From assembly GCF_003334305.1 (NCBI RefSeq), contig NZ_QOWS01000001.1: 64,000 nucleotides of DNA; one strand, 5' to 3'. The notes beneath the pieces were generated by a model. The model made no database searches, was not told the origin of the DNA, and saw nothing but the letters and a program-made list of their open reading frames with translations. Of the stretch, positions 15,066 to 15,299 are shown one piece after another (the stretch's first letter is position 1; each line of letters begins with the position of its first letter). Position numbers and translations under genes: made by a program. Origin of the DNA: Escherichia coli. Its GTDB lineage: Bacteria; Pseudomonadota; Gammaproteobacteria; Enterobacterales; Enterobacteriaceae.

Positions 15066-15118
15066 CGTTAAGAGTTTCTCTTCCTGAAACGTTTCGCGGA
15101 ATGATACTAGTGTAGCCA

Positions 15119-15136
15119 GCCAATAAGGGAGAAAAA
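15119..15136 (-). promoter_or_regulatory. Candidate BaeR binding box in the mdtA promoter
   Basis: Minus-strand sequence TTTTTCTCCCTTATTGGC closely matches the reported BaeR box consensus TTTTTCTCCATDATTGGC; lies about 55 bp upstream of mdtA start. Confidence 0.5.
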
Positions 15137-15299
15137 TGGAGGAATTATGAAACACTATCGGGAATCGTCTGAATGGCGGGCACATTTGCGAGCACGCATC
15201 CAGTAATAACACAGGAAACTATTTTATCTACGCGTTAGCGATAGACTACATACAGGGCGAAAGGAGGTAAGCCGCAGATTTCAGCCGGATGCTGAAACG

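Follow-up and report, generated by a model that had tools for sequence, protein, structure and literature searches.

Organization of the mdtA locus

We analyzed the region upstream of mdtA in a 64-kb stretch of Escherichia coli DNA, referred to below as the window. The mdtA gene (13818..15065, minus strand) encodes a protein of 415 aa and is the first gene of the mdtABCD-baeSR operon, based on the RefSeq annotation and a match to the NCBIfam model NF008589 (724 bits; cutoff, 391). Downstream of it on the same strand lie mdtB, mdtC, mdtD, baeS (4802-6205; NCBIfam BaeS, 929 bits; cutoff, 603), and baeR (4083-4805; NCBIfam BaeR equivalog, 450 bits; cutoff, 380), with baeS and baeR (4083..6205) closing the operon. 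MdtA, MdtD, BaeS, and BaeR each exceeded their NCBIfam cutoffs. The BaeR of the window also matched the PhoB and OmpR models, with scores below the cutoffs of those models. The regulator and sensor that a BaeR operator calls for, the BaeR and BaeS equivalogs, were thus found in the same operon as mdtA.

The mdtA start codon is located at 15065 and the first intergenic base is 15066. The repeat map and alignments delimited a unique spacer of 119 nt (15066..15184) between the start codon and the first Sib/Ibs unit, and this spacer contains the entire conserved promoter. The sequence-only reading of this DNA had delimited the region as 15066-15212. Its start is indeed the first intergenic base, while its end marks nothing more than the end of an ORF mechanically extended to a GTG codon.

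Upstream of the spacer, direct repeats and Rfam matches revealed an array (15185..16170) in which three Sib/Ibs type I toxin-antitoxin units recur every ~328 nt. The three Sib RNAs are encoded on the minus strand (15329-15471, 15657-15799, and 15986-16134) and matched the Rfam family RF00113 (SIB_RNA) at 138-150 bits, far over its gathering score of 56. The ibs ORFs lie antisense to them on the plus strand (15344-15400, 15672-15728, and 16001-16060), corresponding to the three Ibs toxin CDS in the identical record of E. coli A7. All three units therefore combine a Sib covariance-model match with an antisense ibs ORF. E. coli A7 is 100% identical to the window over 14900-16400, and the same stretch was matched in 5,420 out of 5,426 complete E. 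coli genomes.

A BaeR box identical to the K-12 mdtA site

The mdtA promoter contains the 18-mer TTTTTCTCCCTTATTGGC on the minus strand (15136..15119), starting 71 nt before the mdtA ATG. Its sequence, its coordinates, and its placement upstream of mdtA were exactly as the sequence-only reading had given them, as was its match to the BaeR consensus. This consensus, TTTTTCTCCATDATTGGC, is credited to Nishino 2005 and was taken second-hand from what PMC3799227 and PMC3915751 give of it. The 18-mer agrees with it at 17 out of 18 positions, the sole mismatch being A to C at position 10. It is the only site with three or fewer mismatches in the 64-kb window, and a match with at most one mismatch occurred in none of 100 dinucleotide shuffles. 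This comparison is partly circular, as the K-12 mdtA site, which is identical to the window site, is one of the three sites that define the consensus. In MG1655 these classical sites are TTTTTCTCCATAATTGGC (spy), TTTTTCTCCACGATTGGC (acrD), and TTTTTCTCCCTTATTGGC (mdtA). The consensus is their majority sequence, and the degenerate D covers their A, G, and T.

The 18-mer is identical to MG1655 2153945-2153962, and the window promoter matches MG1655 base for base from the ATG to beyond the box. Given this identity with K-12, the 18-mer is, judged by sequence, the canonical BaeR box of mdtA, beyond the "BaeR-box-like" description of the sequence-only reading. Every sequence-level feature that defines membership of the BaeR-box family was found. 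The K-12 mdtA (yegM) promoter has the same 18-mer, 71-nt distance to the ATG, -10 region, 5' UTR, and operon ending in baeSR. There is no promoter difference between K-12 and the window, and the upstream Sib/Ibs units number two in K-12 and three here. The K-12 mdtA (yegM) box is reportedly the one described by Baranova and Nikaido in 2002 and by Nishino in 2005, and gel shifts of the BaeR site are said to have been presented in these primary papers. The site, the regulator, and the adjoining Sib/Ibs locus are already known from E. coli K-12.

Other motif searches were less informative. The shorter Yamamoto motif TCTNCANAA occurred at chance frequency in the window and was absent from the mdtA promoter. 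An exact-pattern scan of genome contigs with TTTTTCTCCNTNATTGGC returned, among the matches listed, almost exclusively chance hits in AT-rich genomes. Among these listed matches, one was enterobacterial, the E. albertii spy box, and none belonged to an mdtA orthologue. A natural variant of the box, TTTTTCTCCCTGATTGGC, was observed in E. coli LI60C3, a strain with four Sib/Ibs units, and is changed only at the D position of the consensus.

Promoter elements and BaeR occupancy

Two transcription start sites of mdtA were placed at 15103 (TSS1) and 15095 on the minus strand. They were transferred by exact identity, with a possible offset of 1 nt, from MG1655 positions 2153978 and 2153986, which are recorded in a SMRT-Cappable-seq supplement (PMC6131387). 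We read two overlapping -10 candidates from the sequence, TACACT (15114-15109, minus strand) and TAGTAT (15109-15104, minus strand), and both are compatible with the two mapped start sites. A TACACT-type hexamer was present in all nine taxa compared, and TAGTAT was broken in E. albertii and Salmonella. No -35-like hexamer was found 16-18 nt upstream of either candidate. The 18-mer spans -33 to -16 relative to the start site at 15103, or -41 to -24 relative to that at 15095, and overlaps the -35 region. Measured against the K-12 start sites, the box thus occupies an activating position in the promoter of a BaeR-dependent gene.

The occupancy and dependence data come from K-12. BaeR ChIP-exo detected two peaks upstream of mdtA, at 2153931-2153967 (peak_5) and 2153972-2153998 (Choudhary et al. 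2020, PMC7657598), which correspond to 15150-15114 and 15109-15083 in the window. These two are the strongest BaeR ChIP-exo peaks genome-wide, with signal-to-noise values of 11 and 15 (PMC7657598). The K-12 box (2153945-2153962) lies wholly within peak_5, which reaches 14 nt upstream of the 18-mer and 5 nt downstream of it; the resolution of ChIP-exo is tens of bp, and at spy the peaks flank the box instead of covering it. In a K-12 baeR deletion in 5% ethanol, mdtA changed by a log2 fold change of -4.0, a 16-fold drop (PMC7657598). The identity of the sequences suggests that BaeR binding and BaeR dependence carry over from K-12 to the strain of the window. A CpxR box of the form GTAAA-N5-GTAAA was sought by eye in 15066-15184 and none was convincing, and the reported CpxR ChIP-exo peaks include none in this interval. 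Within the Sib/Ibs repeats, the K-12 ChIP-exo data report neither BaeR nor CpxR peaks.

We also observed other conserved elements around the promoter. A perfect palindrome of 10 bp, GAAACGTTTC (15086..15095), is strongly conserved in the mdtA 5' UTR across the sampled genera. It sits at or just past the mapped start sites, and may be a site for some dimeric factor or an RNA element. Farther upstream, a -35-like TTCAGA (15168..15173, minus strand) is located ~65-70 nt upstream of TSS1, and the pattern T-N-CAGA was found in nine out of nine sequences. TTCAGA and CATAAT (15144-15149, minus strand), 18-19 nt apart, are conserved across genera with a variable intervening sequence, a pattern that resembles the signature of a sigma-70 promoter. 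No start site downstream of this pair is recorded in the SMRT-Cappable-seq table (PMC6131387), and BaeR would sit downstream of its start; we therefore rejected TTCAGA-N18-CATAAT as a BaeR-dependent promoter. Kim 2012 (PMC3415461) assigns mdtA a 5' end at MG1655 2153370, inside sibA and 646 nt upstream. We rejected this position as an mdtA promoter, as it lies inside SibA and looks like a mis-assigned Sib-derived end. The Cappable-seq supplement had no entry for the mdtA upstream region, and literature searches for an mdtA start site by primer extension, or for footprinting, found nothing relevant.

Tandem repeats extending upstream of the 18-mer

A repeat scan of the minus strand identified three tandem direct repeats (15122..15152) related to CTCCATDATT, which corresponds to consensus positions 6-15. 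The repeats are TTTCATAATT (unit a, 15152-15143), CTCCATTTTT (unit b, 15141-15132), and CTCCCTTATT (unit c, 15131-15122). They are spaced by 11 bp (15152 to 15141) and 10 bp (15141 to 15131), and occupy the stretch from -49 to -19, counted from TSS1. Their CTCC/CAT cores lie at 15149-15147, 15141-15138, and 15131-15128. No other in-phase triple exists on either strand of the 64-kb window, and a triple of any kind appeared in 1 out of 200 block shuffles, with a repeat-detecting 10-mer that was chosen post hoc, after inspection of the consensus. A second CTCC unit is also located upstream of the other classical boxes, 11 bp away at acrD and 22 bp away at spy.

To compare this arrangement across genera, we recovered the upstream regions of E. 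albertii, C. amalonaticus, C. freundii, and a K. oxytoca-group genome through their MdtA orthologues. The regions from Salmonella enterica, K. aerogenes, and K. pneumoniae were chromosomal pieces filed in a plasmid collection. An invariant block, TTTCATAATTCCTCCAT-TTT (15152-15132, minus strand), was found immediately upstream of the 18-mer, sharing only the T-run with it. Units a and b were invariant in nine sequences from Escherichia, Salmonella, Citrobacter, and Klebsiella. In a 6-sequence alignment, 16 out of 17 bases were invariant upstream of the 18-mer compared with 7 out of 18 within it, and the 9-sequence alignment gave the same contrast.

The 18-mer itself varied considerably. Its 3' 12-13 nt were unconserved in three species of Klebsiella, and C. 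freundii and Salmonella had degraded versions of them. The spacer TTTTTAAGCGGCGTTCGC stands in its place in Klebsiella, and the diverged remainder reads AAGCGGCGTTCGC in the K. oxytoca group, ACGGCCCCTTCCC in K. pneumoniae, and GCGGGGCGTTCCG in K. aerogenes. The C. freundii 18-mer carries several changes, and that of Salmonella has lost the ATTGGC part (15124-15119 in the window). Because the 3' part is unconserved, the 18-mer as written cannot be the whole conserved recognition element. We tentatively propose, at somewhat below even confidence, that the BaeR operator of mdtA is a three-unit tandem array (15152-15122) whose distal units lie largely outside the 18-mer and are invariant across genera. 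The flagged 18-mer would then be the proximal one and a half units of this array.

This arrangement can be compared with that of known operators. The K-12 spy and acrD boxes belong to the same 18-mer family, and the second CTCC-type unit upstream of each is in helical phase. The spy box differs in its location: it precedes the ATG by 156 nt and lies beside CpxR-type GTAAA repeats, upstream of the core promoter, whereas the mdtA box overlaps the -35 region. No ChIP-exo peak is reported for acrD. The pho box used by PhoB in class II activation is similar to the mdtA arrangement in that both have tandem direct repeats of 10-11 bp in place of a -35 hexamer, stopping ~10 bp short of the -10, and PhoB and BaeR belong to the same OmpR/PhoB family. 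Both features that mark a pho-box-type operator were observed at mdtA, namely at least two direct repeats at 10-11-bp phasing and an overlap with, or replacement of, the -35 hexamer. The repeat sequence is different (CTCCATnATT-like at mdtA), and contact with sigma-70 region 4 is an assumption in the case of BaeR. A close resemblance to units b and c was found in the DzrR operator of Dickeya oryzae desAB, a footprinted 25-bp site, CGGTTCTCCATCATATCTCCATATT, with two TCTCCAT repeats 11 bp apart (PMC10052836). DzrR and BaeR are separate response regulators according to the same paper, DzrR controls a different pump, and it is reported to act independently of phosphorylation (PMC10052836).

Variation of the Sib/Ibs array

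The array of the window occupies the same place and orientation as the K-12 sibA/sibB (QUAD) locus between yegL and mdtA, with Sib antisense to ibs. The sequence-only reading had placed the first Sib/Ibs repeat within about 60 bp of the box, which agrees with its start at 15185 and a gap of 48 nt (15137-15184). The mdtA-proximal ibs mRNA is predicted to start at 15254 on the plus strand, divergent from mdtA, with the -10 TAGACT at 15242-15247 (plus strand), both by homology to the ibsB start site and its flank (PMC3415461).

The number of units differs among strains. There are two in MG1655, three in the window and in A7, four in LI60C3 and strain 167, and one plus a prophage in Z1323PEC0012, a range of 1-4 units in E. 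coli. A single unit was found in Salmonella, both Citrobacter species, and K. aerogenes, roughly 240-270 nt from the mdtA ATG, and no Sib unit was found near mdtA in K. pneumoniae or the K. oxytoca-group genome. Multiple units were seen in E. coli alone among the sampled taxa. The presence of a single unit at the same distance in Salmonella, Citrobacter, and K. aerogenes indicates that the adjacency of Sib and mdtA is ancestral and older than Escherichia. In these taxa yegD directly flanks the single unit, and in E. coli yegI, pphC, and yegL lie beyond the array.

In arrays of 1-4 units, the distance from the box to the ATG was always 71 nt and that from the nearest ibs to the mdtA ATG was always 279 nt. 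The promoter together with the repeat junction (15050-15200, 151 nt) gave one contiguous match of at least 95% identity in 5,416 out of 5,426 complete E. coli genomes, and the 52-nt core promoter containing the box was at least 99% identical in 5,292 out of 5,415 E. coli records. The constant junction and distances indicate that units are gained or lost away from the junction. Copy number thus changes by whole internal or distal units, leaving the mdtA-proximal junction intact.

Two rearrangements were observed near the array. E. coli WWCOL-315 carries an insertion of an ISCro1-like element of the IS66 family ~20 bp upstream of the 18-mer, with a duplication of 15150-15156. The insertion leaves the three operator repeats, the box, and the remaining core promoter intact and cuts off all upstream sequence, which makes this strain a natural test of the dependence of the mdtA promoter on upstream elements. 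A prophage encoding a tyrosine integrase abuts a Sib/Ibs unit in two hosts, an E. coli isolate from a dog and E. albertii, and the joint falls at exactly the same point in both, ...TAAATAAGG|. The joint is located at record positions 2268 (dog isolate) and 255 (E. albertii), equivalent to 15339, 15667, and 15996 in the window, just before the ibs start codon. The identical joint in the two hosts suggests that the Sib/Ibs repeat contains a phage attachment site.

Alternative explanations

The sequence-only reading had raised the possibility that expansion of the Sib/Ibs repeats alters the spacing or upstream elements of the promoter. Gain and loss of units would then tune efflux expression between strains. 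The array does start only 48 nt from the box and truly varies from 1 to 4 units in E. coli, and the divergent ibs promoter is ~150 bp from the mdtA start site, so that coupling through supercoiling is conceivable in principle. The comparative data do not bear this proposal out. The proximal junction was identical and all distances were constant whatever the size of the array, which is not the behavior of a repeat-number-dependent (contingency-type) promoter, and the 151-nt junction was contiguous in nearly all complete genomes (5,416/5,426). Added units are distal or internal and at least 328 bp away, and the units carry no reported BaeR or CpxR ChIP-exo peak. In addition, cross-genus homology of the promoter fades ~110 nt ahead of the ATG, still within the unique spacer, and K. 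pneumoniae and the K. oxytoca-group genome retain the core promoter in the absence of Sib. We consider an effect of repeat number on the promoter very unlikely. Literature searches on the Sib/Ibs-mdtA locus found no relevant papers. A consensus match arisen by chance, without any regulatory function, has negligible probability. Such a match could be entertained on the grounds that the consensus was built on only three sites and that AT-rich genomes yield many chance matches to a relaxed pattern, but the shuffles (0/100 at one mismatch or fewer), the conservation of the 52-nt core in E. coli, and the identity with a K-12 site bound in experiments all speak against it, and the K-12 ChIP-exo and expression data refute it.

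The invariant block upstream of the 18-mer could be conserved for reasons other than a three-unit operator. On the plus strand, GGAGGAATTATG (15138-15149) reads as a Shine-Dalgarno sequence and ATG of a small ORF divergent from mdtA. Most of the nine sequences carry this string, Salmonella having ATGGAA instead of ATGAAA, and in the window it opens an ORF of 19 aa with a strong Shine-Dalgarno sequence (15138-15206). However, the ORFs behind the string range from 8 to 38 aa across genera (9 aa in K-12) with little sequence conservation, no upstream promoter or start site was found on the plus strand, and GGAG and ATG are simply the reverse complements of the CTCC and CAT repeat cores. We rejected the ORF as a conserved gene on the basis of its variable length and sequence and find it extremely unlikely to account for the block; given these ORFs, the string is treated as probably a by-product of the operator repeat cores. 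A more serious alternative, which we regard as possible though on balance unlikely, is that BaeR recognizes mainly the distal TTTCATAATTCCTCCATTTTT (15152-15132), and that most of the 18-mer (CTCCCTTATTGGC) is a promoter spacer whose match to the consensus is confined to Escherichia and its close relatives. The concentration of invariant bases upstream of the 18-mer (16/17 against 7/18) and the longer upstream reach of peak_5 (14 nt against 5 nt) favor such a distal element, and the distal unit has the CTNCA core noted in PMC3799227 where the 18-mer has CTCCC. Against it, ATTGGC is common to all three E. coli BaeR sites, which argues for its recognition, and Escherichia, C. amalonaticus, and Salmonella (TTTTTCTCCCTT) all have an intact unit c. 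Another role is also conceivable for the invariant block, for example as an UP-like element or as the site of another factor.

Proposed activation of the mdtA operon and its implications

Taken as a whole, the locus is with high probability best explained by the known BaeR operator, an operon activated by BaeR, a self-contained promoter, and an independent Sib/Ibs array. Phosphorylated BaeR, encoded at the end of the operon, would activate the mdtABCD-baeSR promoter through the 18-mer. The most likely role of BaeR is that of a pho-box-like, class II activator recruiting RNA polymerase, because the box overlaps a -35 region that has no usable -35 hexamer and because BaeR belongs to the OmpR/PhoB family. 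Since baeSR are part of the operon, induction would feed back positively in an autoregulatory loop. The 18-mer is probably the promoter-proximal part of a longer operator made of three helically phased direct repeats of 10-11 bp. The promoter would be self-contained in the 119-nt unique spacer, and the adjoining Sib/Ibs array would be an independent type I toxin-antitoxin locus. The nearest array promoter, that of ibs, would fire away from mdtA, and changes in copy number leave the mdtA promoter unchanged.

That Sib/Ibs copy number varies with no change in the sequence or spacing of the mdtA promoter is a useful negative result, which concerns sequence and not expression. The location of the conserved operator part, directly ahead of the textbook 18-mer, is only mildly new. 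If the three-unit array is correct, the 18-mer consensus would be mis-centred by ~10-15 bp, and scans that use it would overlook BaeR sites in other genera or put them in the wrong place. As BaeSR affects antibiotic and metal tolerance, this refinement could improve the prediction of the BaeR regulon in Klebsiella, Salmonella, and other enterobacteria.
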